From assembly GCA_002861595.1 (NCBI GenBank), contig PJQG01000026.1:442-64441 (forward strand): DNA of 64,000 bases, in the 5' to 3' direction. This DNA comes from Actinomycetota bacterium (GTDB lineage: Bacteria > Actinomycetota > Acidimicrobiia > Acidimicrobiales > GCA-2861595). Made by a program: the position numbers and the translations under genes. Positions 11,590 to 30,835 of the stretch are shown one piece after another (the stretch's first letter is position 1; every line of letters begins with the position of its first letter). Under the pieces are notes generated by a model, which worked only from the letters and a program-made list of their open reading frames with translations, was not told where the DNA came from and did not search any database.

Positions 11590-12933
11590 GTGCCGTCGGC
11601 GCCGGCCGCGGCACCGCCCCAGGCCCACGACGCCCGGCGAGCGACCGGACACGCGTTCGCTATGCTCCTGCACAGTGCCGGAGGTCGCGAGCCCCGCCGA
11701 GGAAGGGCCCCGACCGATACCGGACCTGACGCTCCGGTTCCCGTCACACCGGCGGTGAGGCCGGGCGTCGTTCGGGGCAGGGGCGGCGCGCCGAGGGGGC
11801 GCCTGCTCGCGGGCCCTCGGCCCGTGGCGGCGCGAGCGGCCACAGTGGGAGCGGCTCTGGCCCTCCCCGTGCTGTGGGAGCTGTTCCGCATGGGCTACTA
11901 CGCCATGCTCGTTCACAACACCACGCTGGCCAAGGAGGCCGCGCTGGCTCGTTGGGACCAGGGGTGGCGCTATTTCGTCGACACGGTGGGCACGTACTAC
12001 CTGGCCGTCCCTCTCCTGGTGGTCGCGCTGTTCGTCGCGCCGCGGGTCGCAACGGCGTGGCGGGTGGGTCAGCGCACGGTGGCCGCCCTCGTCGCCGCCC
12101 CGATCGCCGTCGGCCTGGTGCAGTGGGTCTACGTGATACGAGTCGGCGGCGACTTCATGCACGGACGTGTCCTGCTCCCGGGCCTCTTCGCCATCCTCCT
12201 GCCCGCCGCCGCTCTCCGCGTCTCCCGGCGCCAACTCGTCGGCTTCGCCGCGCTGGGCGTGTGGGCGCTCCTCGTCGGCACGGTCGTCCGCGTGCCCTAC
12301 CGAGGGGACATCGGGCCCGCGGGCATCGCCGACGAACGCGGCGTGTACGCGGGATGGGCCCGACGTGCCCACCCCGTGGCTGCCGACGACTACGCGCGCT
12401 GGGTGTGGCTCCGCCGTGGCCGGGATCTGCGCCGCCTGGCGGCCCAAGGAAAGCCCGTCCTGATACTCGGAGAGCGGGGCTTCGCCGATGCCAAGCAGCG
12501 GCTGCCCCTGCGATCGAGTCAGGATCGGCCCGTGGCTGTCTTCACGTCTGTGGGCATGCTCTCGTTCGCGGCGGGCGTCGACGTCCACGTCGTCGATCAG
12601 CTGGCCTTGGGCGACGTCATCGCCTCTCATCAGCGCGTCGACGTGCGGGGCCGGCCCGGCCACGAGAAGCTGCTGCACCTGGCCTGGGCGGCGGCCCGGT
12701 TCGCCGACCCCTCGGCGCCTCCGCCGCCACTCGGGCCGACGACCGCGGAGACGGCGGCAGCCCGCCGGGCGCTTCGCTGCGAGCCCCTCGCCGAGCTGTT
12801 CGCCGCTACCCAGGACCGCCTGTCGACGAGGCGCTTCATGAAGAACATGGGCGCTGCCCTCCGCCTCCATCGCCTTCGGTTCTCACCCTCTCCCGTCGTC
12901 GCCGTGCAGGAGCTGTGCGGGGGGTCGGCCTGA
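11590..12933 (+). CDS. AftB-like (GT-C arabinofuranosyltransferase family) protein lacking the N-terminal catalytic-loop region; truncated gene or pseudogene
   Basis: LFRMGYYAMLVHNTTLAKEAA, VGGDFMHGRVLLP and GHEKLL match my recollection of the middle and C-terminal parts of mycobacterial AftB. No room upstream (wzm is on the other strand) for the first ~200 aa. A likelier start is GTG 11824. Confidence 0.5.
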   Translation: MPSAPAAAPPQAHDARRATGHAFAMLLHSAGGREPRRGRAPTDTGPDAPVPVTPAVRPGVVRGRGGAPRGRLLAGPRPVAARAATVGAALALPVLWELFRMGYYAMLVHNTTLAKEAALARWDQGWRYFVDTVGTYYLAVPLLVVALFVAPRVATAWRVGQRTVAALVAAPIAVGLVQWVYVIRVGGDFMHGRVLLPGLFAILLPAAALRVSRRQLVGFAALGVWALLVGTVVRVPYRGDIGPAGIADERGVYAGWARRAHPVAADDYARWVWLRRGRDLRRLAAQGKPVLILGERGFADAKQRLPLRSSQDRPVAVFTSVGMLSFAAGVDVHVVDQLALGDVIASHQRVDVRGRPGHEKLLHLAWAAARFADPSAPPPPLGPTTAETAAARRALRCEPLAELFAATQDRLSTRRFMKNMGAALRLHRLRFSPSPVVAVQELCGGSA

Positions 12934-13027: not shown

Positions 13028-14704
13028 GTGGTCGACGCCGACATCCGATCGCTCGAGGCCGGGACCTCCGAGGCTGCCCCGGGCCGCACGGCCTCCAGAA
13101 GAGGGGATCGAGCGGGCCCAGAGCCATTTCGAGCGCGGACGCCCGGCCCGCCTGTGCGTGCCCTCCAGTGGCTGGCGACCTTCGTCGGCCGCCGTTGGGG
13201 CGGCCTCACCGTCATCACCGCGTTCGCGCTCTCTCGCGTCGCCCTCGCGCACCTGGCCGATCTGCGCTTCGACAACATCCCCCTCAACGTCTCGCTTCAG
13301 CTCCTCGATCGCGGCCATCTGCGTGAAGACCTGGTGGGCAGCGTCATCCACCTCCACTCCCAGCCCCCGCTGTTCAACCTCTTGATCGGCTTGGGCCTCC
13401 GTGCGCCGTTGCACCTCGAAACGCCGCTGTTCCATGCGCTGTACCTCGCCGTCGGGCTGGGTACCACGGTGTGCCTCTACGCCCTGCTGCGGCGCGTCGG
13501 GGTACCGACCGTGGTCGCCGTGGTCGTCACCCTGGTCTTCACCTCGAGCCCGTCGTTCTTCCTCTACGAGACGTGGCTGCACTACGACCAACTCGTCATG
13601 TTCTTGTTGTGCCTCTCGGCGTTGGCGCTGCTGCGCTACGAGGAGAGCGGACGGGCTCGGCACGCCGCTGTGTTCCTGACCCTCGTGGCCGCGGTCGTGC
13701 TGACGAGGAGCCTCTTCCACCTGGTCTGGTTCATGGCGTGGCCCGTCGTGCTCCTGGCACGTCGCGGCGTCGACCGTCGCCGGCTGCTGTCGGCTATGGC
13801 GCTGCCCGTCGTCGTGGTGGTCGGCCTTCAAGTGCACCGCCTCGTCACCTTCGGCACACCCTCGTTGAGCAGCCTGGTCGGGATCAGCCTGGCCAAGATC
13901 ACAACGTTCCAGCTCTCGGAGAGCGAGCGTCGGGACCTCGTGGGTCGCGGCGAGATCTCGCCGGTCTCGCTGGTCGAGCCCCTCAGCCCGCCGGCCAGCT
14001 ACGAAGGCCTCGTCCCCACCCCACGTCCCACGGGTGTCCCCGCCCTCGATGAGGACCTGAAGGGGTTCTACCGGAGCCCGCTCACCGACGACTTCTTCCG
14101 GATGAACCTGAACAGCATGGTGTTCCTCGAGGTCTCCAACCAGTACCGAAACGACGCACTCCACGTCATCCGAACACGACCGGGTGCGTACGTCAAAGGC
14201 GTGGCCAGGGCCGTGGAGATATTCTTCCGACCGACGAGTGACGTGTTCGCTTTCGCCCAGAACCGTGACCGAGTCGGATCGCTCGACCGCTTCTACAACC
14301 GTGCCGTGTTCGGGGTGGCCGCACCGGGAAAGGCCGCAGAAGGCATTCCCCCGGCCCACCTCGGTTACATCGAGGGGCCGGCTCGGACTGCGTGGTTCGT
14401 CGTAGCCGCCTACGTGGCCGCCCTCGTGGGCGGCGCATTCACTCTTCTCCGGCGAGCCAGGCGACGAGACGAAGGCGGCGGGTCGCTCCTGACGATCGGC
14501 TTCTTGTGGCTGACGACGCTGTACGTCTTCGTGTTCAGCAACACCCTCGAGGTGGGAGAGAACAACCGCTTCCGGCTCTACTCAGACCCATTGGTGATCG
14601 CACTACTCGCCGCGCTCGTCGTGCGGTGGCACCGAGGCCGGGCGGAGCGCATCGACGCCAGGCCGCTCGATCGTCGTCGCCAGAGTCAGAAGTGGGTGCG
14701 GTAG
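13028..14704 (+). CDS. Paralog A of an unrecognised polytopic membrane protein family (GT-C-like)
   Basis: 558-aa ORF with an AAGGAGG SD upstream of GTG 13028 (alternative GTG 13154). Motifs [52 protein letters not shown] are shared with 17589.. and 19229.. Confidence 0.75.
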   Translation: MVDADIRSLEAGTSEAAPGRTASRRGDRAGPEPFRARTPGPPVRALQWLATFVGRRWGGLTVITAFALSRVALAHLADLRFDNIPLNVSLQLLDRGHLREDLVGSVIHLHSQPPLFNLLIGLGLRAPLHLETPLFHALYLAVGLGTTVCLYALLRRVGVPTVVAVVVTLVFTSSPSFFLYETWLHYDQLVMFLLCLSALALLRYEESGRARHAAVFLTLVAAVVLTRSLFHLVWFMAWPVVLLARRGVDRRRLLSAMALPVVVVVGLQVHRLVTFGTPSLSSLVGISLAKITTFQLSESERRDLVGRGEISPVSLVEPLSPPASYEGLVPTPRPTGVPALDEDLKGFYRSPLTDDFFRMNLNSMVFLEVSNQYRNDALHVIRTRPGAYVKGVARAVEIFFRPTSDVFAFAQNRDRVGSLDRFYNRAVFGVAAPGKAAEGIPPAHLGYIEGPARTAWFVVAAYVAALVGGAFTLLRRARRRDEGGGSLLTIGFLWLTTLYVFVFSNTLEVGENNRFRLYSDPLVIALLAALVVRWHRGRAERIDARPLDRRRQSQKWVR

Positions 14705-15597
14705 CGCTCGAAGGCGGCGACCGTCTGGGCCGGCAGGAAGCGGAACAGAGCATCGGGGTCACCGGCGACGGCCTCCACGATGGCCAGGTTGTGCTCGTAG
14801 CCCAGGTACTCCTTCTTCATGTCGACGACGAGGTCGTGGGGGTTGCGCTCCTGGACGACCGACGGCTTGGCGAACGCCACCTTCGCCCCCATCCCCTGGA
14901 GGTAATAAGCCGCCCAGATGTCGTCCATGCGGCCCACGTCGGGAAAGAGGAAGTAGTGCTGGAGCCAGGACGCGCCGAGGAAGGTGTTCTGGGAGTTGAA
15001 TGGGCTCATGGCGTCTGCGGCCATTGGAAAGAGCGATTCGTCGAAGGAGCAGTCGGGAGCGAACTGCATCCGGCAGATGGCGTCGATGTCGGGGTCACCG
15101 TTCCAGAAGTCGGCCTGGACGTCGGGACGAAGCACCTCGCGGCGCCTCGTCGAGTAGTCCCGCTGCGGGAGGAGCTGCAGCGGGTACCCCCGATGCCACA
15201 GGTGGGGATAGTTGGTGGCGCCGACGGGGTCGAAGGCCGGCAGTGACGTGGCGAAGAACTCCACCTCCACGTCCCTGCCAACCAACAGGTCGCGGCCCCA
15301 CCCCTCGTAGGGGACGTTGTCGTCGTCGACGACGGCCACCACCTCCGCGCCCATCTCGCGCGCCACGAGGAAGCCGAAGTTGCGCCGCTGTATGCAGTTC
15401 CAACCGATGAGGTCGGAAAGCGTCTTGTCGATCTTCTCCTGCTCGGCGGGGCCGAGGTACGTACCGCGTTCGAGGTGGTAGTCCTCGGGCGTCTTGAGGT
15501 CGCCCAGCACGACGAGGTGCCAGTCCGGCAGGGCGTCGAAGAGGCGAACCGCTTTGGTGGGGGGATTGATGGTGGTCGTGACGATGACGTTGGTCAC
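14686..15597 (-). CDS. RGP/GT75-like protein (homolog of plant reversibly glycosylated polypeptide / UDP-L-arabinopyranose mutase)
   Basis: 303 aa from GTG (complement 15595-15597). VVDDDNVP, LWHRGYPLQLL, GRMDDIWAAYY, NPHDLVVDMKKEYLGY parallel the RGP motifs IDDDCFV, FVRGYPFSLR, GRYDDMWAGW, NPFVNLKKEYKGI (recalled from memory). Confidence 0.65.
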   Translation of the reverse strand: MTNVIVTTTINPPTKAVRLFDALPDWHLVVLGDLKTPEDYHLERGTYLGPAEQEKIDKTLSDLIGWNCIQRRNFGFLVAREMGAEVVAVVDDDNVPYEGWGRDLLVGRDVEVEFFATSLPAFDPVGATNYPHLWHRGYPLQLLPQRDYSTRRREVLRPDVQADFWNGDPDIDAICRMQFAPDCSFDESLFPMAADAMSPFNSQNTFLGASWLQHYFLFPDVGRMDDIWAAYYLQGMGAKVAFAKPSVVQERNPHDLVVDMKKEYLGYEHNLAIVEAVAGDPDALFRFLPAQTVAAFERYRTHF

Positions 15598-16418
15598 GTG
15601 ATGGGAGCCGGGCTGGATTGGCGGAGGATGGTGGCCGCTCCCTGGACCCGGTGGGCCAAGAGCGTGCGGATGTAGCGAGCCTGGGTCGAGAGGGAGTTCT
15701 GCGACTCGCCCTCCTGCCGCGGCGTCCAGAACGTTGGGATCTCGATGACCTCGACCCCGAGGCGCAGCGGCTTGAGGACGGTCTCGAGCAGGAACTCGTG
15801 GCGGAGCCCCTCCCAGCGGATGGCCTGGACGAGCGGGGTGGGAAAGAGCCGGTACCCGAAGGTCGCGTCGGTGAGATGGGTGTTGTAGAGCAGCGAGGTG
15901 AGGCGCTGGAACACCCAGTTCGCGGCGACACGGGCCCGGCCGTAGCCGGAGAACCCGCCACCCGGTGCCCAGCGCGACGCGGTGATGACGGCAGCGGGGT
16001 GCTTCTTGGCGAGCTCGATGAACCGCGGCACGAGCTTCGGGTCCGTCTCCAGGTCGGTGGACATCATGATCACGTGGCTGGCGGTTGCGAGGTCGAACGC
16101 CTCCCGCATGGCGCCCCCGAGGAAAGGCAGGTGCTGGTTGTGGATGTGGACTCGGTCGCCGAACCGCGATTCGAGTGCCTCGCACCGCGCCAGCGTCTCG
16201 GGTGTGGTGCGGTCGCACACCACGACCAGGACCTGGGCGATGTCCTCGTCGCTCGTCTCCTTGAGGATGCGAGCGGTCTCGTCGACAGAGTCGGTCTCCG
16301 TAACGGCCGGGAGGAGGACAGTCACACCAGAGAACTCACGAGCGACCGGAGGCGACGTTGCGGGCACGACGGGTTCCTCTCTTTCTCGAAGGGACCGGCT
16401 GGCCCCAAGGGGGGCCAT
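15594..16418 (-). CDS. GT2, DPM1/Ppm1-like polyprenyl-phosphate sugar synthase
   Basis: MSTDLETDP, ASRWAPGGG...ANWVF, TDATFGYRLF, EIPTFWTPRQEGESQ fit the dolichol-P-mannose-synthase pattern. Its stop overlaps the downstream GTG (GTGA). Start uncertain (ATG 16418 or GTG 16367). Confidence 0.75.
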   Translation of the reverse strand: MAPLGASRSLREREEPVVPATSPPVAREFSGVTVLLPAVTETDSVDETARILKETSDEDIAQVLVVVCDRTTPETLARCEALESRFGDRVHIHNQHLPFLGGAMREAFDLATASHVIMMSTDLETDPKLVPRFIELAKKHPAAVITASRWAPGGGFSGYGRARVAANWVFQRLTSLLYNTHLTDATFGYRLFPTPLVQAIRWEGLRHEFLLETVLKPLRLGVEVIEIPTFWTPRQEGESQNSLSTQARYIRTLLAHRVQGAATILRQSSPAPIT

Positions 16419-16584
16419 GCCCGGCGACGGGTACCCTAGCGCCGGCTGTTCTCGCCGCCCACCACACTCCAGCACCACGAACCGCACGGCTGTGCTGTCC
16501 CCGCTCGCCGCGGGGCACGTGCTATCTTCACCGGCGCTGGAGAGGCGGGGTCGTCACGCAAGGGCGTGCACAGAAAGGAAATCA

Positions 16585-17571
16585 ATGAGCAACGACGCCG
16601 TGGTCGTGGGTGGGGCCGGTGGTTTCATCGGCGGTCACCTCGTCTCCAGCCTGCTGGAGGAAGGACGGGCCGTGAGGGCCGTCGATTACAAGCCGCTGTC
16701 GGCATGGTGCCAGCTCCACCCGGGTGCCGACAACCGCTCCCTCGACCTCCGCACGGCCGAAGCCTGTCGCAAGTCCGTCGACGGCGCCGCCGAGGTCTAC
16801 AACCTGGCCGCCGACATGGGCGGCATGGGTTTCATCGAGAGCAACAAGGCCTTGTGCATGCTCTCTGTCCTCATCAACACGCATCTGTTGATGGCGGCCC
16901 ACGAGAGCGGGGTCGAGCGCTACTTCTTCGCTTCCTCGGCCTGTGTCTACGCGTCGGACAAGCAGGTGTCGCCGGCGGTCACCGCCCTGAAGGAGGCCGA
17001 CGCCTACCCGGCGATGCCCGAGGACGGCTACGGCTGGGAGAAGCTGTTCGGCGAGCGGATGTGCCGGCACTTCCGAGAGGACTTCGGGCTGCAGACCCGC
17101 ACGGCGCGCTACCACAACGTCTACGGCGAGTACGGGACCTACGACGGCGGTCGCGAGAAGGCGCCGGCCGCCATCTGCCGGAAGGTGATCGAGGCCAAGC
17201 TGTCGGGCCGCCACGAGATCGAGGTGTGGGGCGACGGCGAGCAGACCCGAAGCTTCATGTACATCACTGACTGCGTGCGAGGCACAAAAGCCATCCTGGC
17301 CAGCGACATCCTCGATCCCATCAACCTCGGCAGCGCCCAGCTGGTCACCATCAACCAACTGATCGACATCGTCGAGGCGGTCGCGGGGATCAAGGTCCGT
17401 CGCAACTACAAGCTGGACGCGCCGCTGGGTGTGCGCGGCCGCAACAGCGACAACACCCTCATCCGAAGCCACCTGGGTTGGGAACCGTCGGTGACCCTCG
17501 AACAGGGAATCGAGAAGACCTACCGCTGGATCTACGACCAGATGACCAGGGTGGACGGCGCCAACAGCTGA
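16585..17571 (+). CDS. gme: GDP-mannose 3,5-epimerase homolog
   Basis: 328 aa with SD AAAGGAA. GGAGGFIGGHL, NLAADMGGMGFI, FFASSACVY, GREKAPAAICRK, WGDGEQTRSF, GVRGRNSDN closely follow plant GME as I remember it. Confidence 0.85.
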   Translation: MSNDAVVVGGAGGFIGGHLVSSLLEEGRAVRAVDYKPLSAWCQLHPGADNRSLDLRTAEACRKSVDGAAEVYNLAADMGGMGFIESNKALCMLSVLINTHLLMAAHESGVERYFFASSACVYASDKQVSPAVTALKEADAYPAMPEDGYGWEKLFGERMCRHFREDFGLQTRTARYHNVYGEYGTYDGGREKAPAAICRKVIEAKLSGRHEIEVWGDGEQTRSFMYITDCVRGTKAILASDILDPINLGSAQLVTINQLIDIVEAVAGIKVRRNYKLDAPLGVRGRNSDNTLIRSHLGWEPSVTLEQGIEKTYRWIYDQMTRVDGANS

Positions 17572-17588
17572 CTTCACGGCGCCGTCCG

Positions 17589-19232
17589 ATGCCGTTCCTC
17601 ATCAGATCGTCAACGGCCCTGCGCCGGCGGTGGGGTGCCCTCGCCGTCGTGACCGGGTTCGTGCTCTCCCGGATCGCCCTGGCCCACTTCGCTCACCTGC
17701 GTTTCGACAACAGCACCATCAACGCGGGCCTGCAGTTCCTCGATCGCGGCCACCTGCGTGAAGACCTGGTGGGCAGCCTCCTCCACCTCCACTCGCAGCC
17801 ACCGTTGTTCAACCTGTTCCTGGGCCTGGTCGTCCATGCGCCGCTGCACCTCGAGGCGCCGATCCTCCACGCCGTGTACCTGGCGGTCGGGCTAGGTCTC
17901 GCCCTCAGCCTCTACGCCATCCTTCGCCACGTCGGGGTGCCGACGGTGGTCGCCGTCGCGGTCGCCCTCGTCTTCACCTTCAGCCCGTCGGTGTTCCTCT
18001 ACGAGAGCTGGTTGCACTACGACTACCCCGTCACACTGGGCCTGTGCCTGGCCGTGTTGGCACTCCTGCGCTACGAAGAACGCCAACGGCCGAGGGACGG
18101 CGCGCTGTTCCTGGTGATGCTCGGCGCCGTCGTGCTCACCAGGAGCCTCTTCAGCGTCGCGTTGGTCCTCCTGTGGGCCATCGTGCTGGTCGCCCGCCGA
18201 GGCGGCGACCGGCGCAGGTTGGTCGGCGCGCTGGCGCTCCCCGTCATCGTGGTGGTCGCCGTGCAGGTGCACCGCCTCGTGGTCTTCGGGACGCCGACGC
18301 TGAGCAGCAGCCTCGGGGTCAGCCTGGCCAAGATGACGACGTTCCAGCTCTCCGAGGGCGAGCGCCAGGAGCTGGCCGCTCGGGGGGAGATCTCCCGCGT
18401 CTCGCTGGTCGAGCCCCTGAGCCCCGCGGACCGCTACCACGGCCTCATCCCCACCCCTCGTCGTACTGGTGTACGGGCCCTCGACGAGGAGGTGAAGGGC
18501 ATCTACCCGAGCCCGCCCACGGACAACGAGTACTTCCGCACCAACACGAACGCCACGATCTTCCAGGAGGTGTCCCGCCGCTACACCGCCGACGCCCTCC
18601 ACGTCATCCGAACCCGCCCCGGTGCCTACTTGCAGGGAGTGGCGACGGCCACCGAGATCTTCTTCCGCCCTACCGGCGACTTCTTCACCCTGGTCGGGAA
18701 CCGGGATCGGGTGGCGGCCCTCGACCGGTTCTACAACCGCGCAGTGTTCGGAGTCGTGGCGGGGGGCAAGGCACCGTCCGTCATCCCCGAGGCGCGGGTC
18801 CAGTACCGCCAGGGCCCGGCGCGCACGGCGTGGGTGGTCGTGGCCGCCTACGCGCTCGCCTTCGTCTGGGGCGCAGCCACGCTCCTGCGCCGAGCACGGC
18901 GACGGGAGCGGGATGGGGGTCCCGTTCTCACCATCGCCTTCCTCTGGCTGACCACCGTCTACGTCTTCGTCGTGAGCAACGCCGTCGAGGTGGGGGAGAA
19001 CAATCGCTTCCGGCTCTACTCCGACCCCCTCGTGATCGCGCTGCTCGCCACGCTGGTCGTGCAATGGCGGCGGAGCCGCTCCCCGCTGGCCCGTGCGCAA
19101 GCAGCTCGCCGAGCCTCGGCGAGCGCGTCGGTCACGACGGTCAGGACGGGCGGGGCGAGAGAATGCGTTCCCGACGCGGTGACGGTCGCGCCGCCCACTC
19201 CTGTCGGTGAGGGGTCTCGAGGAGGGCAGTGA
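17589..19232 (+). CDS. Paralog B of the unrecognised membrane protein family
   Basis: 547 aa from ATG 17589. Colinear with paralog A, with long identical runs ([77 protein letters not shown]). Confidence 0.8.
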   Translation: MPFLIRSSTALRRRWGALAVVTGFVLSRIALAHFAHLRFDNSTINAGLQFLDRGHLREDLVGSLLHLHSQPPLFNLFLGLVVHAPLHLEAPILHAVYLAVGLGLALSLYAILRHVGVPTVVAVAVALVFTFSPSVFLYESWLHYDYPVTLGLCLAVLALLRYEERQRPRDGALFLVMLGAVVLTRSLFSVALVLLWAIVLVARRGGDRRRLVGALALPVIVVVAVQVHRLVVFGTPTLSSSLGVSLAKMTTFQLSEGERQELAARGEISRVSLVEPLSPADRYHGLIPTPRRTGVRALDEEVKGIYPSPPTDNEYFRTNTNATIFQEVSRRYTADALHVIRTRPGAYLQGVATATEIFFRPTGDFFTLVGNRDRVAALDRFYNRAVFGVVAGGKAPSVIPEARVQYRQGPARTAWVVVAAYALAFVWGAATLLRRARRRERDGGPVLTIAFLWLTTVYVFVVSNAVEVGENNRFRLYSDPLVIALLATLVVQWRRSRSPLARAQAARRASASASVTTVRTGGARECVPDAVTVAPPTPVGEGSRGGQ

Positions 19233-20803
19233 CAGCCACGACGGCGGCGAGGCCCAGGGGCGAGGTCCACGGGGAGCCTGCCGACTGGTCGAGGCGCACG
19301 TCGGGGTGGCACCTCGGCGCGCTCGTCGTCGTCGTCGTCGCCTTCGTGGTCTCACGCATCGCCATCGCCCACAGCGGGGTGGTGTTCGACGACCGCACGC
19401 TGAACGACAGCCACCAGTTGCTGGAGCTGAGCGAGCTGCGGGACCACCCGCTGCGCAGCCTCGCCAACCTGCACTCCCAACCGCCGCTGTTCAACCTCTT
19501 CGTCGCCCTGGGCCTGCGGGCGCCGGAGTCCTGGCACAGGACGCTGTTCCACCTGAGCCAGCTCGCCATAGGTCTGGGGCTGATGCTGTGCCTCTACGCC
19601 GTGCTGAAGCGGCTCGGGGTGCGCAGCGCCATGGCCGTCGTACTCGTCGTGGTCTTCTCGCTGAGCCCGTCGGTGTTCCTCTACGAGAACTGGTTCCACT
19701 ACGACTACCCGATCGCGCTCATGCTGTGCCTCGCCGTGCTGGCGCTGCAACGGTACGAGACCGGCCATCGCCTGGGCCATGCGGCGATCTTCTTCGTCTT
19801 GCTCGGCACCATCGTGCTGACCAGGAGCATGTTCCACCTGTTCTGGATGGCCGCCTGGGTGGCCGTGCTCGTGTTCCACCGTCGCGGTGCCGACTGGAGG
19901 CGGGTGGCCGCCGTGGCGGCCGTACCGCTCGTCGCCGCGGTGGGCCTCCACCTCCAGCGCCTCGTCACCTTCGGCACCTTCTCCTCCACCTCCTCGCTCG
20001 GGATGAGCCTGGCCAAGCTGACCACCTTCCAGCTGACTGGACGTGAACGCCAGGAGCTGGTCGCGGAGCGGAAGCTCTCGAGGGTGGCCTTGATCGACCC
20101 GTTCTTCCCCGTTCGGGTCTACGCGCCAGTGGTCCCACCCCGGCCACCGACGGGGGTGCCGGTGCTCGACGACGCGGACAAGACGCTCGCCGACGGCAGC
20201 ACCCGCAACAACTACAACCACATCAACTACCTCGACATCGACGACCGCTACATGGACGACGTCAAGCGCACCATGAGGATGAGGCCTACGGCGTACGCGC
20301 GCGGTGTGGCGACCGCCTACGACATCTTCTTCCGGCCGCCCAGCGATTTCTTCGCCATCGGGCAGAACCGCGAACAGGTGGCCGGACTGGACCGCCTCTA
20401 CAACCACGCGTTCTATGGCCTGATCGGCGGCGCCGAGGACGTGGACGGTCATCCCGACAGCGCTCGCCAGTTCCGCCAGTCCCCGGGGCGCACGGCCTGG
20501 TTGAGCGTGGCGGCTTATGCCGTTGCCGTCGTCGGAGGCGCCGTCCACCTCTGGCGCCGACGCCGCCGTTCAGGCGACGAGCCTCAGTCCTGGCTGGTCC
20601 TGGCGTTCCTCTGGTCCACGGTGACCTACGTCATGGTCCTCGGCACCATGTTCGAGGTGGCCGAGAACAACCGCTTCCGGCTCTACTCCGACCCCCTCGT
20701 CCTCGCCCTCGTGGCCGCCCTGGTGGTCGCCTGGCGGCGTCAGCGGCCCACGACCAGGGTCCAGCCTGCCGGGTGGTCCCGGGCCCGAGGGCGGGACCGT
20801 TGA
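19229..20803 (+). CDS. Paralog C of the unrecognised membrane protein family (more divergent)
   Basis: 524 aa. GTGA overlap with the paralog B stop. Keeps [54 protein letters not shown]. Confidence 0.8.
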
Positions 20804-20844
20804 CAACTGGCCAGCTAGCGTTCGCTGACCGCGGAGGAGAACCA

Positions 20845-21852
20845 GTGCGCGCGCTAATCACCGGCATCTCCGGGCAGGACGGCTCCTACCTGGCCGAGTT
20901 GCTCCTGACCAAGGGCTACGACGTCCATGGGGTGGTGCGCCGCGCCTCGAGCTTCAACACCAGCCGCCTCGACCCGATCTACCAGGACCCCCACCAGGGC
21001 GGACAGCGGCTCTTCCTCCATTCCGGCGACCTCGCCGACGCCGTCGGGCTCGTGAACCTGGTCGCCGCCATCCGACCCGACGAGGTGTACCACCTCGGTG
21101 CGCAGAGCCACGTGCGCGTCTCGTTCGACCAGCCGGAGTACACCGCGGACATCACCGGCATGGGAACGCTCAGGCTGCTCGAGGCCATCCGCGCCGCTGG
21201 TGTCGAAACCCGGTTCTACCAGGCGTCGTCCTCGGAGATGTTCGGTGCCGCGCCGCCACCGCAGAACGAGCTGACGCCGTTCCACCCGCGCAGCCCGTAC
21301 GCCTGCGCCAAGGTCTTCGCCTTCCACCTGACCGTCAACTACCGAGAGGCGTACGGCCTCTTCGCCGCCAACGGGATCATGATGAACCACGAGAGCCCGC
21401 GCCGTGGCGAGATGTTCGTTACGAGGAAGATCAGCCGTGCCGTCGCCCGCATCGCCGCCGGGCTCCAGGACGAGGTCTACCTCGGCAACCTCGACGCCCG
21501 CCGCGACTGGGGCTACACGCCCGACTACGTGGACGCCATGTGGCGGGTGCTCCAGCACGAGGAGGCAGACGACTTCGTCATCGCCACCGGGGAGAGCCAC
21601 TCGGTGCGGGAGTTCTGTGAGGTCGCCTTCGCCCATGCCGATCTGGACTGGGAGCGCCACGTCCGTACCGACCCCAGCTACGATCGGCCCTCGGAGGTCC
21701 ATCATTTGCTCGGCAATGCTGCGAAGGCCAAGCGAGTCCTGGGGTGGACGCCGACAGTCCGTTTCGAGGAGCTGGTCCGGATCATGGTGGACGCGGACGT
21801 CGAAGCCCTCGAAGCCGAGATGTCCGGCAGGACAGCGAGGATCGAGAGATGA
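20845..21852 (+). CDS. gmd: GDP-mannose 4,6-dehydratase
   Basis: GTG 20845 after [54 protein letters not shown] are Gmd hallmarks. Confidence 0.95.
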
Positions 21853-22796
21853 ACATCAACAACGAGGTGGTCGTGGTCACGGGGGGCAGAGGATTCCTCG
21901 GCTGTCACGTGACCGAGGAGCTCCGGGGTGCGGGGGCGAAGGTCGTGCCTCTCGGCAGCGGCGATTACGACCTGCGCCGGCGGAGCGAGATCGACGCCAT
22001 GCTCGCAGATCACGATCCCGCCGTCGTGGTGCACCTGGCCGCCCTGGTGGGAGGCATCGGTGCCAACCGGGCCGAGCCGGGGCGGTTCTTCTACGACAAC
22101 GCCCTGATGGGCATCGAGCTGATCGAGGCGTGCCGGGTGGCCGGCGTCCGGAAGATGGTGATCGCGGGCACGGTGTGCTCCTATCCGAAGAACACCCCGA
22201 TCCCCTTCGACGAGGACGACCTGTGGAACGGCTACCCGGAGGAGACCAACGCGCCCTACGGCTTTGCCAAGAAGATGCTGCTTGCTCAGGCCCAGGCCTA
22301 CCGGCAGCAGTACGGCACGAACGCCATCTTCCTGCTCCCCGTGAACCTGTACGGGCCCGGCGACAACTTCGACCTCGAGAGCAGCCATGTGGTGGCGGGC
22401 ATGATCCGCAAGTTCGAGGACGCTCGGGTGAGCGGGGCCCCCGCTGTCACGCTCTGGGGGGACGGGAGCGCGACCCGGGAGTTCCTCTACGTCTCGGACG
22501 CGGCCCGGGCCTTCCGCTTGGCCCTCGAACGCTATGACGGCCCCGACCCGGTGAACGTCGGCTCCGGGGACGAGGTCACCATCCGAGACCTGGCCAAGCA
22601 CATCCAGCGGGCGACCGGCTACGTCGGTGAGATCGTGTGGGACACCTCCAAGCCGAACGGCCAGCCGAGGCGGAGGCTCTCCACCACCCGGGCCATGCGC
22701 TACTTCGGCTTCGAGGCGACGGTGCCGTTCGAGGAAGGGGTGGCGAGGACGGTGGAGTCGTTCCGGGCGACGCACCAGGAGGCGAGAGAGACCTGA
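21849..22796 (+). CDS. fcl: GDP-L-fucose synthase (GDP-4-keto-6-deoxymannose 3,5-epimerase/4-reductase)
   Basis: ATGA overlap with the gmd stop. [40 protein letters not shown] match the Fcl/WcaG pattern. Confidence 0.9.
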
Positions 22797-22916: not shown

Positions 22917-24104
22917 TTGATGGAGGAGCGGTCGGACCTCGACGAGGTCATCGCTCAACTCAGGGCACGGGTCGAGGAACGCCGGCGCGCAGGCGATTAC
23001 CCGCCGGGGATGGAAGATGATCTGGACCGTCATTTCCGGCGCGTCGCAGCCCACCGGGCCCTTCCCGACCACCTGCCTCTCGAAGAGCGGTTGCGCCAAC
23101 TCTCCGGGGTCTCCTTGGACCGTGGTGCCATCAACGTCGACTCGGAGCTGCCCGGCGGCACGGCCCTCCACCGGCTCGTCGCCAAGGCGGTGGGCCGCCA
23201 GACCGAAGGGGTGCTGGACCAGGTCCGCCAGTTCGCCGATGCCGTCAGGTCGGCCTTCGAAGCCGTGCTGGCGGCCCTCGAGGACCCTTACGGCCACACC
23301 CATGGGGACCTGGTTGACCAGCTCGACGCCGTGCTCGAACGCCTGGCCGGTTTCGAGCGGGGTTCTGACGGCGGCTCGGCCATGGTCGGGGACCTGCGTC
23401 GCCGGGTGGAACGACTGGAGGCCGGGGAGCGGGCCCGGCGGGTGCAGCCCTGGTACACCAACGAACGCTTCGAGGCCGCGTTCCGGGGAAGCCGCGAGGA
23501 CCTCCACGAGCAGTACCGGGACCTGGCGACGCGCCTCGCCGACTCTGCGCCGGTTCTCGACATCGGGTGCGGCAGAGGCGAGTTCCTCGAGTTGCTGGCC
23601 GAGCTGGGGGTCGAGGCCTCCGGCGTGGAGCTCGATCCCGCCCTGGCCCAGGCCGCGGCACGCCGCGGCCTGAACGTGGAGGTGGGCGAAGGACTTCGTC
23701 ACCTGGGCGCGCTTGCTGATCGCTCACTCGGCGGCATCAGCATGATCCAGGTGGTGGAGCATCTGCCTCCTCAGGGCGTGCTGGACGTGGTCCCCCTTGC
23801 CGCCGAGAAGCTTCGACCCGGGGGCCTCCTGGTGATGGAGAGCGTCAACTGCCAATCCCTCTACGCCATGGCCCACCCGTTCTTCATCGACCCGACCCAC
23901 ATCCGCCCCGTCCATCCCGCGTACCTCGCCTTCCTGGCCCACGAGGCCGGCTTCGCCGAGGTGTCGATCGAGTGGCGCTCACCGCCTCCGAAGGAAGCGG
24001 TGCTCCTCGATGTCGGTGGGGACGGTCCCGAGGCCACCAACGTCCGGCGCCTGAACGAGGTGATCTTCGGCCCCCAGGACTACGCCGTCATCGCCTCTCG
24101 CTGA
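22917..24104 (+). CDS. Class I SAM-dependent methyltransferase with ~190-aa helical N-terminal extension
   Basis: VLDIGCGRGEFLELL (motif I), LRPGGLLVMES. The N-terminus is rich in charged heptad-like helices. Start TTG 22917 or ATG 22920. Confidence 0.8.
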   Translation: MMEERSDLDEVIAQLRARVEERRRAGDYPPGMEDDLDRHFRRVAAHRALPDHLPLEERLRQLSGVSLDRGAINVDSELPGGTALHRLVAKAVGRQTEGVLDQVRQFADAVRSAFEAVLAALEDPYGHTHGDLVDQLDAVLERLAGFERGSDGGSAMVGDLRRRVERLEAGERARRVQPWYTNERFEAAFRGSREDLHEQYRDLATRLADSAPVLDIGCGRGEFLELLAELGVEASGVELDPALAQAAARRGLNVEVGEGLRHLGALADRSLGGISMIQVVEHLPPQGVLDVVPLAAEKLRPGGLLVMESVNCQSLYAMAHPFFIDPTHIRPVHPAYLAFLAHEAGFAEVSIEWRSPPPKEAVLLDVGGDGPEATNVRRLNEVIFGPQDYAVIASR

Positions 24105-25219
24105 GGGCGTCGAGCGAGGTGATCGGCAGCGGCGGCGAGGGCATAGGCGGCCAGGACGCCCCACAAGGGGAACCACGCCTTCCAGTAGTGGATGTTGCCG
24201 AACAGCAGGTGGGCGCCACTGCCGCCGGGGTAGCTCAGGTAGATGGCGGACCCCAGCACTGACACGGCGAAGGCGGCGCCGAGGGGAAGGGCCAGGCGGT
24301 GGCGCCGGCGGACGAGAACGGCCACGCCCACCGGCGCCAGGGCTGCCCACGGGAACTGACGCCCGATCGGGTCGACCTCGGCGCGAACCGTTCCGGTCCT
24401 TCCGGTCACGAACACCTCGAGGAAGTTGCGCGGTGCCCGCTGCGGCTCGAAGTTCGACAGGCTCTGCTGGTTGCTGCCCTCTCCCTGGCGGCCTTCCTGC
24501 TGGCTGTAGGGCGTCTTCAGCGGGCTGCCGAGCACGGCGGCGTGGGTGGCCAGCACAGGGATGGCGACCAGGACGGCGCCGGCCGCGGCGGCGACCAGAA
24601 CGCGCGAGCGCCCACGTCCCCCGACAGTGCCGCGGACCAGCGCCAGGGCGCCGATCAGAGCGGGGAAGAGGGCGTCGAGATACCGGGCCGCGAACGCCAT
24701 GCCGGTGGCCAAGCCGATGATCAGGCCGCCCCGCCACGTCACCTGGCCCGGCGACGTGGCGACCACCAGCGCGGCCAGCACCGCCACCACGGTCACCGTT
24801 GTGTTCCACGGTACGACCATGGTGTCGAGCAGCGGCGTGGCGAGGGCCACTGCGGCGGCACACGCCAGGCCGAAGCCGGAGGAGCGAAGGCGACGGCCGA
24901 GGACGGCCACCATGGCCATGGCCGCGGCAAAGGCGATCGCGTCGGGGATGGCGAAGGCGTCGCCCCCGGGCCGCAGCTTCAGGAACGGTACGGCCAGCGC
25001 GGGGTAGCCAAGCCCGTAGATGTAGCTCGAGGGCGGGGAGGGCAGGTTCGCCCGGGCAAGATCGCGGGCCAGGTCGAGGTAGTGGCTCTGGTCGAAGAAG
25101 CCGTACCACCCCGGCGGGTTCAGCACCCCTGGCCGTGCGGGGTGGATGGCCAGCGCGTAGGCGAACAGGCCGACGGCGGCGATGGCGACACCGCCCACGA
25201 GCGTCGTTCCGGGCGGCAT
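24080..25219 (-). CDS. Polytopic membrane protein, GT-C/ArnT-like
   Basis: 379 aa, ~10 hydrophobic helices. First-loop FFDQSHYLDLARDLA resembles the ArnT-type D-E-x-x-Y-x-x-x-A-x-x-M motif. Confidence 0.6.
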   Translation of the reverse strand: MPPGTTLVGGVAIAAVGLFAYALAIHPARPGVLNPPGWYGFFDQSHYLDLARDLARANLPSPPSSYIYGLGYPALAVPFLKLRPGGDAFAIPDAIAFAAAMAMVAVLGRRLRSSGFGLACAAAVALATPLLDTMVVPWNTTVTVVAVLAALVVATSPGQVTWRGGLIIGLATGMAFAARYLDALFPALIGALALVRGTVGGRGRSRVLVAAAAGAVLVAIPVLATHAAVLGSPLKTPYSQQEGRQGEGSNQQSLSNFEPQRAPRNFLEVFVTGRTGTVRAEVDPIGRQFPWAALAPVGVAVLVRRRHRLALPLGAAFAVSVLGSAIYLSYPGGSGAHLLFGNIHYWKAWFPLWGVLAAYALAAAADHLARRPQREAMTA

Positions 25220-25269: not shown

Positions 25270-26808
25270 TCAGGCGCCCACCCGTCCCCGCTTCTCGTTC
25301 GCTGCGGACATGGCGGCACGAGGGATGACCGGCGCGTCGCGCCCGGTGCCGCCATCCTCCGGGCCCTCGGCCGCCTTCTCCTCGTGGTACTCCGCCTCCA
25401 CGTTGACCTGCCAGATGTCATGGTGGGCCCCGAGGATGTTCTCGACCGTGAGCATGGCGGTGTACATGGAGTGGTCCTGGTTGTTGTACTTGTGCATCCC
25501 GTTGCGACCGACGGGGTGGACATTCGCGGCGTTGGCCTCGAGCCAGTCGCGGAGCACCTGCACGTTGGCCTTGTAGGTGTCGTCGTACACCGGGTAGGCC
25601 TTGGGGCAGCGCACCACGTAGCCCGCCTCCACCTTGGCGGGGTCGGCGAGGCCCAGCTTGTGGAGCTCCCGCTTGCCCAGCTCGACCAGCTCGTGGTCGG
25701 GCATCGTCCACAACCGGTCGCCCTCGAACACGAAGTATTCGAGCCCGAGGCAGGTGCGGCCGTCCTTGACGAGGTAGGGCGACCAGGACCCGAAGTTCTG
25801 GATCCGGCCGACGTTCACCTCCGGCGAGTGAACGTAGATCCAGTTGTCCGGGAACCCCGCCTCCTCGGGCATCACGAGGGCCACCGTGAGGAAGTCACGG
25901 TAGGCGAGCCCGTCGGCGGCCGCCTGCACCTCGGGGGGAACGGGGGGGTCCATCACCTTCAGCAGCGTGGAGATGGGCATGGAGGACACGACGTGCGAGC
26001 AGGGATACTCGGTGCGCACCCCTTCCGTGTCGGCCACGACGGCAACGGCGTGCCCGGCCTCGTGGCGTACCGTGGTGGCGGCCGTGCGCATGAGGACCTT
26101 CGAGCCCTGCGCCTCGACGAGCTCCCGGCACCGCTCCCACATCATCCCCGGCCCGTACTTCGGGTACTGGAACTCCTCGATGAGGGTGGTGATCTCGGTC
26201 TGGTTGCGTTTGGGCAACACGGCGTTGAGCACGGCGCTGGCCAGGGACAGGTTCTTGATGCGCTGGGCCGCCCAGTCGGCCTGGATCTCGGTGGCCGGCA
26301 CGCCCCACACCTTCTCGGTGTAGGTCTTGAAGAACGTGCGGTAGAGGCGGCTGCCGAAGCGGGCCGAGACCCAGCCCTCGAAGTTGGTCTGGTCCTTCGG
26401 CGGCCGGACCCGTGCCCAGGCGTAGGAGAGCACACAGCGGCCGGCCTCGAGGACGCCCAGGTTCTTCAAGGCGTTGGATGCCTTGAGTGGATAATCGAAG
26501 AACTTGCCGTTGTAGTAGATGCGGCTCATCCGGGGCCGGAGCAGGAAGTCTTCGTCGGGGAGGATCTCGTGCCAGAGATCCTCCACTGCCTGAACCTTGG
26601 TGAAGAAGCGGTGGCCGCCGATGTCGAAGCGCCAGCCGTCGCGTTCGGCTGACCTGCTGATGCCCCCTACCACGTCGTCCGCCTCCAGCACCGTCGAGGC
26701 CCGGCCACGCTTGCCCAATTCGTAAGCAGCCGTCAGTCCCGCCGGCCCCGCTCCTATGACGACCACCTCCGTGTCGCGATCGACCTCGGCCGGTTCAGCT
26801 GTCGTCAT
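25270..26808 (-). CDS. FAD-dependent oxidoreductase, UDP-galactopyranose-mutase-like
   Basis: VVVIGAGPAGLTAAYEL (FAD-binding GxGxxG), GGHRFFT, IYYNGKFFDYPL, TYTEKVWG, AYPVYDD...GRNGMHKYNNQDH parallel Glf motifs GAHIFHT, GYTEKQWG, YYPVND...GRLAEYKYYDM (from memory). Confidence 0.7.
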   Translation of the reverse strand: MTTAEPAEVDRDTEVVVIGAGPAGLTAAYELGKRGRASTVLEADDVVGGISRSAERDGWRFDIGGHRFFTKVQAVEDLWHEILPDEDFLLRPRMSRIYYNGKFFDYPLKASNALKNLGVLEAGRCVLSYAWARVRPPKDQTNFEGWVSARFGSRLYRTFFKTYTEKVWGVPATEIQADWAAQRIKNLSLASAVLNAVLPKRNQTEITTLIEEFQYPKYGPGMMWERCRELVEAQGSKVLMRTAATTVRHEAGHAVAVVADTEGVRTEYPCSHVVSSMPISTLLKVMDPPVPPEVQAAADGLAYRDFLTVALVMPEEAGFPDNWIYVHSPEVNVGRIQNFGSWSPYLVKDGRTCLGLEYFVFEGDRLWTMPDHELVELGKRELHKLGLADPAKVEAGYVVRCPKAYPVYDDTYKANVQVLRDWLEANAANVHPVGRNGMHKYNNQDHSMYTAMLTVENILGAHHDIWQVNVEAEYHEEKAAEGPEDGGTGRDAPVIPRAAMSAANEKRGRVGA

Positions 26809-29986: not shown

Positions 29987-30002
29987 CGCCGCGCCCGCGG
30001 TG

Positions 30003-30440: not shown

Positions 30441-30835
30441 TACCGACGGCGGTGACGGCACCGGCGCCGCCGCCACCCGAAGAGCACCGCGGCGAGCGCC
30501 AGGGCGGCGAGGACCGGCCCTGCGATCTCCTTGGGGGCAGGGACGCCGAGGATGTGCAGCCCGCCCCTCTCGCCCTCGTCGTCCCGCGCCCGGCCGGCGT
30601 CGGTGGCCGATGAGCTCGCTGCGGCAGGGGGAGCCACGCCCTCGAGCTCGGGGAAACGCGCTGCTTCGTACAGCGCTGTCGCTGCGGAGGCCTTGAGCAT
30701 CTCCGTCTCGTCCCGCCCCACGTCGAAGGCGGCGACCGGGGTACCCGGAGCGGGCGATCCCGGCCCCCACGGGCGCGGGGGCTTCTCGGCCTCGGCCGGC
30801 TCTTCCTCCTCCGGAGAACGATCGCTCGGCTCCAT
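30440..30835 (-). CDS. Hypothetical acidic protein with C-terminal TM helix
   Basis: 131-aa ORF from ATG (complement 30833-30835). High third-position GC. C-terminal IAGPVLAALALAAVLFGW followed by RRRR. No family recognised. Confidence 0.35.
   Translation of the reverse strand: MEPSDRSPEEEEPAEAEKPPRPWGPGSPAPGTPVAAFDVGRDETEMLKASAATALYEAARFPELEGVAPPAAASSSATDAGRARDDEGERGGLHILGVPAPKEIAGPVLAALALAAVLFGWRRRRCRHRRR

Follow-up and report, generated by a model that had tools for sequence, protein, structure and literature searches.

The 64,000-nucleotide window analysed here, from an uncultured actinobacterium, contains a cell-envelope glycan locus of ~22 kb (about 7.7-29.1 kb) that lies next to the housekeeping block ppx-eno-mfd-pth-rplY-prsA and encodes a GDP-mannose 3,5-epimerase (GME) homologue together with the enzyme pair Gmd and Fcl. 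An envelope-glycan role for the locus is likely. We propose, tentatively and at somewhat less than even confidence, that the GME and Gmd/Fcl branches would not end as pyranose donors, but would converge on a 303-residue GT75-like mutase homologue, with a small GT2 protein attaching the resulting furanose to polyprenyl phosphate, as a donor for GT-C enzymes acting outside the membrane.

Positions 16585-17571 (forward strand) very probably encode a catalytically intact GME/GM35E homologue of 328 residues, as judged from sequence comparison. A phmmer search of the PDB matches residues 5-322 to AtGME (2C59) with an E-value of 1.1e-88 and 300.8 bits, with the runner-up family, GDP-fucose synthase, scoring 97 bits, and identity to AtGME is ~44% over the full length. 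The GME-type signature put forward in the sequence-only reading is thereby borne out far beyond chance, and all five of the motifs quoted for it are present in the translation, namely NLAADMGGMGFI (residues 73-84), FFASSACVY (114-122), GREKAPAAICRK (189-200), WGDGEQTRSF (215-224), and GVRGRNSDN (282-290). Alignment to AtGME, proposed there as a check, shows all of the catalytic residues to be kept in this extended SDR, with GxxGxxG at 9-16, a Ser118/Tyr149/Lys153 triad, Cys120 and Lys192 equivalent to the AtGME acid-base pair C145/K217, and Arg286 equivalent to R306 (residue roles after PMC6678494). In contrast to the plant enzyme, the window protein has neither the N-terminal extension of ~25 residues nor the C-terminal one of ~30 residues, and it has no role in ascorbate synthesis, its setting being an envelope-glycan locus.

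GME is common in bacteria. The earlier statement that GME homologues are uncommon in bacteria is contradicted by a scan in which a single genome represented each GTDB species; it confirmed at least 599 loci, distributed over Verrucomicrobiota, Acidobacteriota, Planctomycetota, Alphaproteobacteria, Chloroflexota, Cyanobacteria, Chlamydiota, Bacteroidota, Patescibacteria, and Actinomycetota. At least 8000 candidates from a protein search resemble the window GME, all at E<=1e-30, with the best 120 showing 71-100% identity and relatives carrying the JGI name GDP-D-mannose 3',5'-epimerase. A bacterial GME, MfGM35E of Methylacidiphilum fumariolicum, has already been biochemically characterised (PMC6678494, PMC8787198), and the A201A and bleomycin pathways are known sources of actinomycete GMEs (PMC6678494). 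The combination of GME, gmd, and fcl within 10 kb is also found in loci L013, L054, and L060 (Planctomycetota, Acidobacteriota).

The gmd gene (20845-21852, forward; start at 20845 or 20851) begins ~3.3 kb beyond the GME stop codon, with two genes for GT-C-like membrane proteins in the interval, and overlaps fcl (21849-22796, forward) as ATGA at 21849-21852. Gmd, a GDP-mannose 4,6-dehydratase, scores 486 bits against TIGR01472 (curated cut-off 415) and 458 bits against Pfam GDP_Man_Dehyd. Each of the 15 best PDB matches of Fcl is a GDP-L-fucose synthase (E-values from 3e-64 downwards). Fcl keeps both catalytic residues, Cys (GTVCSYP) and His (ESSHVV), and scores 277 bits against the NCBIfam equivalog NF047922, under its 500-bit cut-off. 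The identities, the spacing of 3 kb, and the ATGA coupling described previously are thus upheld, and Gmd and Fcl almost certainly constitute a genuine, translationally coupled GDP-L-fucose pathway. L-Fucose is 6-deoxy-L-galactose. Given an intact GME and Gmd/Fcl, GDP-mannose could be diverted into both GDP-L-galactose (with or without GDP-L-gulose) and GDP-L-fucose, and with both branches lying in one ~22-kb locus, a side-by-side capacity for GDP-L-Gal (or GDP-L-Gul) and GDP-L-Fuc is encoded. The earlier expectation that the product glycan contains L-Gal (or L-Gul) together with L-Fuc stands in so far as both GDP-L-sugar routes belong to the same envelope-glycan locus, but took no account of the adjacent GT75-like mutase homologue and DPMS-like GT2 protein, which suggest furanose, lipid-linked forms.

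The 303-residue GT75-like protein (14686-15597, reverse), a putative GDP-L-hexose pyranose/furanose mutase, has a start that overlaps the GT2 stop as GTGA. Its only PDB sequence matches are to MtdL (E 3e-17 with a single-sequence query), and a profile of 25 family sequences matches MtdL residues 13-304 with an E-value of 1.6e-25. Foldseek searches with an AF2 model (pLDDT 80, pTM 0.84) place the MtdL entries at the top (E 5e-18, TM 0.70), followed by rice UAM2 (E 4e-10) and then by generic GT-A folds, with MtdL (GT75) and plant UDP-arabinopyranose mutase being its only solved relatives. Family-invariant residues match MtdL at DDD109-111/N112, Arg159, Asp195, Ser228/Gln229, Arg257, Asp260, Arg289, and His292, and likewise at the GDP-type residues Thr13, Ile15, and Asp40. 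In MtdL, Arg159 acts as the nucleophile and Asp260 as the general base, with MtdL and Hyg20 interconverting GDP-L-Galp/GDP-L-Galf and GDP-L-Fucp/GDP-L-Fucf (PMC9937993). A pyranose/furanose mutase function for the 303-residue protein, to which both are distantly related, is, on balance, slightly favoured. The protein is labelled "hypothetical", was passed over along with its GT2 neighbour in the sequence-only reading, and belongs to a family of 5391 members, none of them named.

The window homologue also departs from MtdL, being only ~24% identical and 70 residues shorter, with Ile at the position of Asp87 and an invariant Gln in place of the Mn ligand His287. Both replacements run throughout the family and lend weight to a rather unlikely alternative, in which the sugars remain pyranoses, as first read, and the 303-residue protein is a GT-A glycosyltransferase with no mutase activity, or a GT75 relative that is inactive; MtdL is inactivated by D87N and by D87S, His287 is also missing from AtRGP5, a plant protein without activity, and GT75 proteins are known to act as autoglycosyltransferases as well (PMC9937993). 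In the same direction, the Pfam RGP model shows no match to the 303-residue window protein, and locus L040 has kept GME, GT2, and GT-C-like genes with no GT75-like gene within 10 kb. This alternative is countered by the invariance of Arg159, Asp260, Asp195, Arg257, Ser228/Gln229, and the DDD motif in the family, and by the position of MtdL and plant UAM as the top structural matches, well apart from ordinary GT-A enzymes. GME and the MtdL homologue are, moreover, neighbours in the window, the layout of a proven two-step pathway (PMC6678494, PMC9937993), with MtdL supplied by a GME in the A201A pathway (PMC6678494).

The trio of GME, GT75-like, and GT2 genes recurs with 74-79% identity in the related Actinomycetota loci L083/84, L085/86, and L087, accompanied in L083-L086 by GT-C-like genes, in whose place L087 has a DUF2079 membrane protein. 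The GT2 gene is syntenic and 74-77% identical in L040, L083, L085, L087, and L095. In 11 further clusters of GME and GT75-like proteins the longest contigs are of identical length, from which we infer that the two genes share contigs. The GT2-GT75-like pairing is kept across phyla, occurring in 30 of the 42 metagenome loci with enough flank, where its usual partner is a different SDR, 25-30% identical to GME, with Ala/Val at the Cys145 position and Tyr at the Lys217 position; a canonical GME lies in the flank of none of the 80 metagenome loci sampled. As this usual partner is not GME, the general substrate of the GT75-like family may not be GDP-L-Gal.

Export functions are represented by Wzt, an ABC ATPase with a C-terminal glycan-binding domain (9350-10612, reverse; PF00005 and PF14524 Wzt_C), and the ABC-2 permease Wzm (10624-11505, reverse; PF01061). 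Together with a SAM-dependent methyltransferase (22920-24104, forward; Methyltransf_23, _25, and _11), a candidate O-methylase or chain-terminating cap, they suggest an ABC-exported, methyl-capped carrier glycan. Further along lie a polytopic membrane protein of 379 residues (24080-25219, reverse; 7 TM-like segments, no Pfam or NCBIfam match) and an FAD-dependent UDP-galactopyranose-mutase-like (UGM-like) protein of the PRK07208 family (25270-26808, reverse; NF005548, 816 bits). For the latter, the best PDB matches are the UGMs of A. fumigatus and T. cruzi (E about 1e-23), with other flavoenzymes scoring far lower. This flavoenzyme may add D-Galf.

Two independent modules might instead have become adjacent by chance, with L-Gal and L-Fuc in different molecules: an ABC-dependent, methyl-capped, fucose-containing polymer made by gmd, fcl, the methyltransferase, Wzm/Wzt, and perhaps the UGM-like protein, and a GME-GT75-like-GT2-GT-C decoration. 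We consider such a composite locus improbable. The gmd-fcl-methyltransferase genes do form their own co-directional block, and the closest relatives with the GME cassette have no gmd/fcl within 10 kb; the fucose branch may therefore belong to another glycan. Locus L091 likewise combines Wzm/Wzt (55-59% identical) and an adjoining homologue of the methyltransferase (41% identical) with the GT2-GT75-like pair, and has no canonical GME. On the other hand, gmd/fcl lie directly 3' of GME and the two GT-C genes in the same direction, the gaps being short and the stretch from 14.5 to 23.2 kb free of terminator-like sites (weak evidence), and known GT75 mutases accept both sugars (PMC9937993).

The GT2 gene (15594-16367, reverse), divergent from GME, encodes a small soluble DPMS/Ppm1-like putative polyprenyl-phosphate glycosyltransferase (PF00535) with no TM segment. 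In the PDB it matches only the dolichol-P-mannose synthase of Pyrococcus (5mlz, E 8e-9), and its NCBIfam matches (AglJ, dolichyl-P hexose transferase, PgfS) are weak and far under cut-off. Membrane proteins of GT-C type are numerous in the locus, with three exceeding the Pfam cut-off for PMT_2: one at its left edge (7665-9362, forward; 45.7 bits), one at 17649-19232 (forward; 27.0 bits, cut-off 26.1), and one with a C-terminal DUF7846 domain (26925-29060, forward; PMT_2 27 bits, DUF7846 42 bits). The second, named "glycosyltransferase family 39 protein" (GT39) by NCBI, gives an AF2 model with a pLDDT of 91 and top Foldseek matches that are all GT-C but weak (E 0.02-0.6, TM 0.25-0.39). Its paralogues at 13028-14704 (forward; 20.6 bits, 8 TM-like segments) and 19229-20803 (forward; 22.8 bits, 10 TM-like segments) fall below the cut-off, and both are syntenic in L040, L083, and L085, the former with 50-56% identity. 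An AftB-like protein (11824-12933, forward; PF26371 AftB_C) matches positions 214-622 of the 633 in NF041481 (138 bits) and only residues 191-643 of AftB in PDB 9dlf (E 3.5e-31), comprising the C-terminal two-thirds and missing the N-terminal ~190 residues. Mycobacterial AftB handles D-arabinofuranose, the ring stereochemistry of which is that of L-Galf and L-Fucf.

Under the proposed scheme, the furanose would be passed to polyprenyl phosphate by the GT2 protein, whose gene is translationally coupled to that of the GT75-like protein. After flipping, five or six GT-C-type transferases, the AftB-like protein among them, would attach L-Galf/L-Fucf to a polymer of the envelope. That GT2 makes a lipid-linked donor for use by the GT-C enzymes is, in our view, evenly balanced. 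It is very unlikely that GT2 is an ordinary Ppm1/DPMS and the GT-C proteins Pmt/MptA-type mannosyltransferases, with GME/Gmd/Fcl feeding cytoplasmic transferases encoded elsewhere. In favour of this reading are the Dol-P-Man synthase as the only solved GT2 relative, the PMT_2 matches and GT39 name of the GT-C proteins, and the use of polyprenyl-P-mannose as the standard lipid donor in actinobacteria (PMC5882110); against it are the low similarity of GT2 to DPMS and its translational coupling to a GT75-like gene with which it stays paired across phyla.

The furanose proposal follows the logic of the A201A and hygromycin A pathways, in which GDP-Man is converted to GDP-L-Gal by GME or to GDP-L-Fuc by Gmd/Fcl, with a GT75 Mn-dependent pyranose-to-furanose mutase accepting both sugars at the next step (PMC9937993, PMC6678494). 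The window holds in one locus a GME and an MtdL homologue, as in A201A (MtdM and MtdL), and Gmd/Fcl with a GT75-like homologue, as in hygromycin A (Gmd/Fcl and Hyg20). Whilst those pathways serve antibiotic tailoring with soluble glycosyltransferases, the window instead offers a DPMS-like GT2, GT-C membrane transferases, and Wzm/Wzt as partners, a set pointing to a role in primary envelope biogenesis. Mycobacterial and corynebacterial arabinogalactan-LAM machinery uses decaprenyl-P-Araf/-Man donors, the GT-C transferases AftA-D/Emb/Mpt, and a Wzm/Wzt-type exporter. The window shares with it several GT-C transferases, an AftB-like protein, a polyprenyl-P-sugar synthase-like GT2, and a Wzm/Wzt pair together with a UGM-like mutase. 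In contrast, neither the DprE1/DprE2/UbiA route to D-Araf nor a GlfT-type galactan polymerase is seen in the locus, the AftB-like protein is without the N-terminal third, the organism is not known as a member of the Mycobacteriales, and the donor would derive from GDP-sugars. If the furanose proposal is true, both L-sugars of the locus would end as rare five-membered-ring (furanose) forms.

Both GDP-sugar branches lie in a glycan locus of ~7.7–29.1 kb, delimited by public gene calls, from which its gene coordinates were taken, and by family scans, and found to be identical in two public MAGs, including GCA_030773755.1 (contig JALYML010000210.1). The 328-aa protein encoded at 16585–17571 (+) is homologous over its full length to GDP-mannose 3,5-epimerase (GME) of Arabidopsis, matching PDB 2c59 over residues 5–322 in a phmmer search of the PDB (E = 1.1e-88, 300.8 bits), with 44% identity across 313 aligned positions and a score of 97 bits for GDP-fucose synthase, the best non-GME family. 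Every motif quoted in the sequence-only reading is present in this ORF, and alignment to the Arabidopsis enzyme (AtGME) finds the catalytic Cys, Lys and Tyr, the Ser and Arg306 all retained. The NAD-binding GxxGxxG motif (GGAGGFIG, residues 9–16) and a match to Pfam Epimerase PF01370 (141 bits) place the protein among the extended SDRs. Its redox triad Ser118/Tyr149/Lys153 corresponds to S143/Y174/K178 of AtGME in the phmmer alignment, with the epimerisation acid/base pair Cys120 (FFASSACVY) and Lys192 (GGREKAP) lying opposite C145 and K217, and Arg286 (GVRGR) opposite R306, in the 2c59 alignment; residue roles are those assigned in PMC6678494.

The genes read as gmd and fcl encode a genuine Gmd and Fcl. 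Gmd (20845–21852) passes the curated equivalog TIGR01472 (486 bits; cut-off 415), and fcl (21849–22796) starts inside the gmd stop codon in an ATGA overlap. The 15 best PDB matches of Fcl are all GDP-L-fucose synthases (E = 3e-64 to 8e-33), with its catalytic pair, which we take to be Cys109/His179 in E. coli numbering, kept in the motifs GTVCSYP and ESSHVV opposite GSSCIYP and TSSHVL of 8du0. Fcl falls below the NCBIfam equivalog cut-off of NF047922 (277 versus 500 bits), a model that appears to be tuned to proteobacterial Fcl. [quoted passage not shown]

Whilst the sequence-only reading identified these three enzymes correctly, its statement that GME homologues are uncommon in bacteria is refuted. 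A protein search returned at least 8000 candidates, all with E ≤ 1e-30 (the best 120 of these being 71–100% identical), and a scan that took a single genome for each GTDB species confirmed at least 599 GME loci. The best 80 of these loci, at 65–74% identity, have hosts in the Verrucomicrobiota, Acidobacteriota, Planctomycetota, Alphaproteobacteria, Chloroflexota, Cyanobacteria, Chlamydiota, Bacteroidota, Patescibacteria and several Actinomycetota lineages. The apparent rarity probably stems from annotation, with many of the top homologues named “GDP-D-mannose 3',5'-epimerase” at JGI and merely “NAD-dependent epimerase/dehydratase” at NCBI, and with NCBIfam holding no GME model (the best NCBIfam match of the window protein is the Fcl model, at 119 bits and far under its cut-off). 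Among bacterial GMEs, that of Methylacidiphilum is a characterised enzyme, and actinomycete GMEs belong to the A201A pathway and, putatively, the bleomycin pathway (PMC6678494, PMC8787198). A plant-type or horizontally acquired GME is ruled out by hundreds of bacterial homologues at 65–80% identity, compared with ~44% for Arabidopsis; judged by sequence similarity, the window GME belongs to a broad bacterial clade. GME together with true gmd and fcl inside 10 kb also occurs at three comparison loci from other genomes (L013, L054 and L060), and the pairing alone is ordinary, under-annotated nucleotide-sugar metabolism.

The value of the pairing is raised by the neighbours of GME, namely an MtdL-type homologue, a GT2 resembling dolichol-phosphate mannose synthase (DPMS) and GT-C membrane proteins, and the locus is moderately interesting on that account. 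The first of these, a 303-aa protein encoded at 14686–15597 (−), has MtdL entries as its only PDB sequence matches (E = 3e-17 from the single sequence), with a profile of 25 family sequences matching MtdL residues 13–304 at E = 1.6e-25. MtdL is a GT75 Mn-dependent mutase that converts GDP-L-galactopyranose to the furanose in the A201A pathway; in the hygromycin A pathway Hyg20 acts on GDP-L-fucose in the same way, and in vitro each of the two enzymes takes either sugar (PMC9937993). The AlphaFold model of the 303-aa protein (pLDDT 80, pTM 0.84) contains a GT-A domain with the GT75 core fold, with Foldseek ranking MtdL first (E = 5e-18, TM 0.70) and rice UAM2 second (E = 4e-10), and generic GT-A folds trailing at E = 5e-6 or weaker.

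The similarity to MtdL extends to the active site. Residues D91–D93/N94, R136, D170, D226, R223 and S202/Q203 are invariant in all 25 family members and lie opposite the DDD motif, the nucleophilic, autoglycosylated Arg159, Asp195, Asp260 (the proposed general base, PMC9937993), Arg257 and Ser228/Gln229 of MtdL, with further family-invariant matches to Arg289 and His292 and to the guanine-side residues Thr13, Ile15 and Asp40. Two positions differ: the Mn2+ ligand His287 of MtdL is replaced by an invariant Gln249, and the sugar-site Asp87 by a nearly invariant Ile69. The Pfam RGP model PF03214 has no match in the window protein at E ≤ 10, and a precomputed match in 3 of the 120 homologue clusters listed. 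Because of these two replacements and the missing RGP match, we file the protein in a divergent GT75-like family, unproven as a mutase. The family counts 5391 matches, all unnamed, and is strongly conserved across phyla. It is possible, albeit rather unlikely, that it constitutes a new GT75 branch of metal-dependent NDP-pyranose mutases serving the primary envelope, which here would make L-Galf and L-Fucf donors for the coupled GT2 to load onto polyprenyl phosphate for GT-C enzymes.

A second candidate pyranose/furanose mutase, again proposed from homology, is the 512-aa flavoenzyme encoded at 25270–26808 (−). This protein belongs to the NCBIfam “hypothetical protein” family PRK07208 (816 bits), and the solved structures closest to it are those of eukaryote-type UDP-galactopyranose mutases (UGMs) from Aspergillus and Trypanosoma (E ~1e-23), far above other flavoproteins. 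As a GDP-L-Gal mutase it was set aside after the match of the 303-aa protein to MtdL, since the known mutases for GDP-L-Gal, as well as those for GDP-L-Fuc, are GT75 enzymes and not flavoenzymes (PMC9937993); a role as a source of UDP-Galf is possible.

The 257-aa GT2 (15594–16367, −) is joined to the GT75-like gene by a GTGA overlap of its stop codon with the start of the 303-aa ORF. It matches PF00535 (44.6 bits), has no TM segment, and finds a single match in the PDB, the Pyrococcus dolichol-phosphate mannose synthase 5mlz (E = 8e-9), with weak NCBIfam matches (AglJ, Dol-P hexose transferase and PgfS) that are far under cut-off and are all polyprenyl-phosphate hexosyltransferases. The large membrane proteins of the locus have 8–10 TM-like segments. 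PMT_2 scores exceed the Pfam cut-off in three: a GT-C gene at the left end of the locus (ORF start also given as 7239), the GT-C-like gene at 17649–19232 (ORF start also given as 17478), and a GT-C gene with a DUF7846 domain starting at 26925, at the right end; GT-C-like genes starting at 13028 and 19229 score below it. The protein encoded at 17649–19232 has no sequence match in the PDB, and Foldseek matches of its model (pLDDT 91) are nearly all GT-C enzymes, namely ArnT, PglB, STT3, ALG3/9, Pmt, EmbB and AftD, although weak (E = 0.02–0.6, TM 0.25–0.39).

A further membrane glycosyltransferase relative, encoded at 11824–12933 (+), resembles the mycobacterial arabinofuranosyltransferase AftB (PDB 9dlf, E = 3.5e-31; NF041481, 138 bits; PF26371 AftB_C), with the alignment covering AftB residues ~191–643 only. 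The missing N-terminal ~190 residues, which presumably include the catalytic first loop of GT-C enzymes, have no space upstream, where a divergent wzm adjoins; possible identities of the protein are a remnant, a split enzyme or a partner without catalytic activity. Export by an ABC transporter is indicated by Wzt (9350–10612, −), which combines an ATPase domain (PF00005) with the glycan-binding Wzt_C domain (PF14524), and by Wzm next to it (−), an ABC-2 permease (PF01061). Downstream of fcl, 22920–24104 (+) encodes a 394-aa methyltransferase, followed by a 7-TM protein of no known family before the UGM-like gene, and a related methyltransferase accompanies Wzm/Wzt at comparison locus L091. Together, Wzt_C and a methyltransferase call to mind the O8/O9a-type O-antigen export of E. 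coli, in which chains are methyl-capped and controlled in length. The locus yielded no cytoplasmic polymerising transferase.

Among the comparison loci listed, the closest GME relatives (L083/84, L085/86 and L087) carry GME beside a ~256-aa GT2 and the 303-aa protein, which has no Pfam domain, with all three 74–79% identical to those of the window, with ~500-aa GT-C-like membrane proteins in L083/84 and L085/86, and a 414-aa protein without a Pfam match and a DUF2079 protein in L087 instead. A baeRF/acVLRF1-family release-factor-like protein of 373–377 aa also lies beside the cassette at two distinct Actinomycetota loci, L085 (14469–15602) and L091 (9216–10337). The closest relatives have no gmd or fcl close to their cassettes, so the fucose genes may have been added in one lineage or may serve a separate glycan. 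Across 80 metagenome loci the usual order is GT2, the GT75-like gene and then an SDR; of the 42 loci in L095–L174 that have enough flank, 30 contain the GT2 and 29 the SDR. This SDR (~325 aa), seen also at L088 (8918–9895), L093 (8937–9917) and L091 (10450–11457), is only 25–30% identical to GME and keeps YxxxK, with Cys145 replaced by Ala or Val and Lys217 by Tyr.

A universal GT2–GT75-like–GME operon is ruled out, with Deltaproteobacterial and other loci carrying the alternative SDR, there ~29% identical to GME and devoid of Cys145/Lys217, in the “GME slot” of an operon of three genes that is widely conserved, and with canonical GME found in 0 of the 80 metagenome flanks searched. GME is thus a partner only in the actinobacterial clade of the window, where it may have taken over the “feeder” role of the other SDR. 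At L040 (JAHWJH010000005.1, 10001–15100), also from Actinomycetota, GME lies with a 77% identical GT2 and two GT-C paralogues, and no GT75-like gene occurs within 10 kb; this locus may be a natural variant with a pyranose donor, or its GT75-like gene may be encoded elsewhere.

The core of the glycan locus (14000–22000) has a G+C content of 66–68%, versus 70–76% in the flanks, a dip that would fit a glycan cassette able to move horizontally. A housekeeping block of ppx, eno, mfd, pth, rplY (L25), prsA and a glmU-like gene (29057–43422) abuts the locus, and tRNA genes lie at 6241–6316 (+) and 43456–43526 (−). Rfam scans found no rRNA in the window, and a c-di-GMP-I riboswitch aptamer at 53809–53897 (−; RF01051, 66 bits versus a gathering score of 35), placed at the 5' end of the minus-strand ORF 52480–53844. 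A promoter and terminator scan of 14.5–23.2 kb found none, a result that is uninformative at 70% GC.

In the mechanism we propose, GME would convert GDP-mannose to GDP-L-Gal and Gmd/Fcl would convert it to GDP-L-Fuc, with both branches converging on the GT75-like enzyme to give GDP-L-Galf and GDP-L-Fucf. This convergence is the most economical arrangement, since L-fucose is the 6-deoxy form of L-galactose and both sugars are substrates of the known GT75 mutases. The GT2, translationally coupled to the GT75-like gene, would transfer the furanose to polyprenyl phosphate, and the resulting lipid-linked sugar would serve the GT-C enzymes on the external side of the membrane. L-Galf and L-Fucf share their ring configuration with D-Araf, which makes the AftB-like protein at most suggestive, and Wzm/Wzt, with the glycan-binding Wzt domain and the methyltransferase, would fit an ABC-exported, end-capped polymer. 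Taken as a whole the chain is tentative, with chances that we place a little short of even.

Parts of this logic are known from antibiotic biosynthesis, with GME and a GT75 mutase combined in A201A, and Gmd/Fcl and Hyg20 in hygromycin A. Those systems tailor antibiotics with soluble transferases; in the window the logic would operate in an envelope locus, with a DPMS-like GT2, GT-C transferases and an ABC exporter. If read correctly, the system would be a GDP-sugar-derived stereochemical look-alike of the mycobacterial decaprenyl-P-D-arabinofuranose (DPA) pathway. To our knowledge, antibiotic A201A is the one source of L-Galf known to date; in full-text literature searches L-galactofuranose came up in only two papers, the one on MtdL and an unrelated one on a transporter, searches on L-galactofuranose, GT75 and lipid-linked furanose returned nothing describing this cassette, and L-galactose falls outside the coverage of a “glycan alphabet” survey.

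The value of the cassette lies in the specific, assayable hypothesis it offers, and its enzymes may find use as biocatalysts for rare L-sugar nucleotides (PMC8787198). If the hypothesis is true, a function would be gained for thousands of “hypothetical proteins” conserved across phyla, and lipid-linked furanose donors would have a second route, based on GDP-sugars, beside the drug-targeted mycobacterial DPA pathway, with L-hexofuranoses, so far curiosities of two antibiotics, becoming envelope components of widespread uncultured Actinomycetota.
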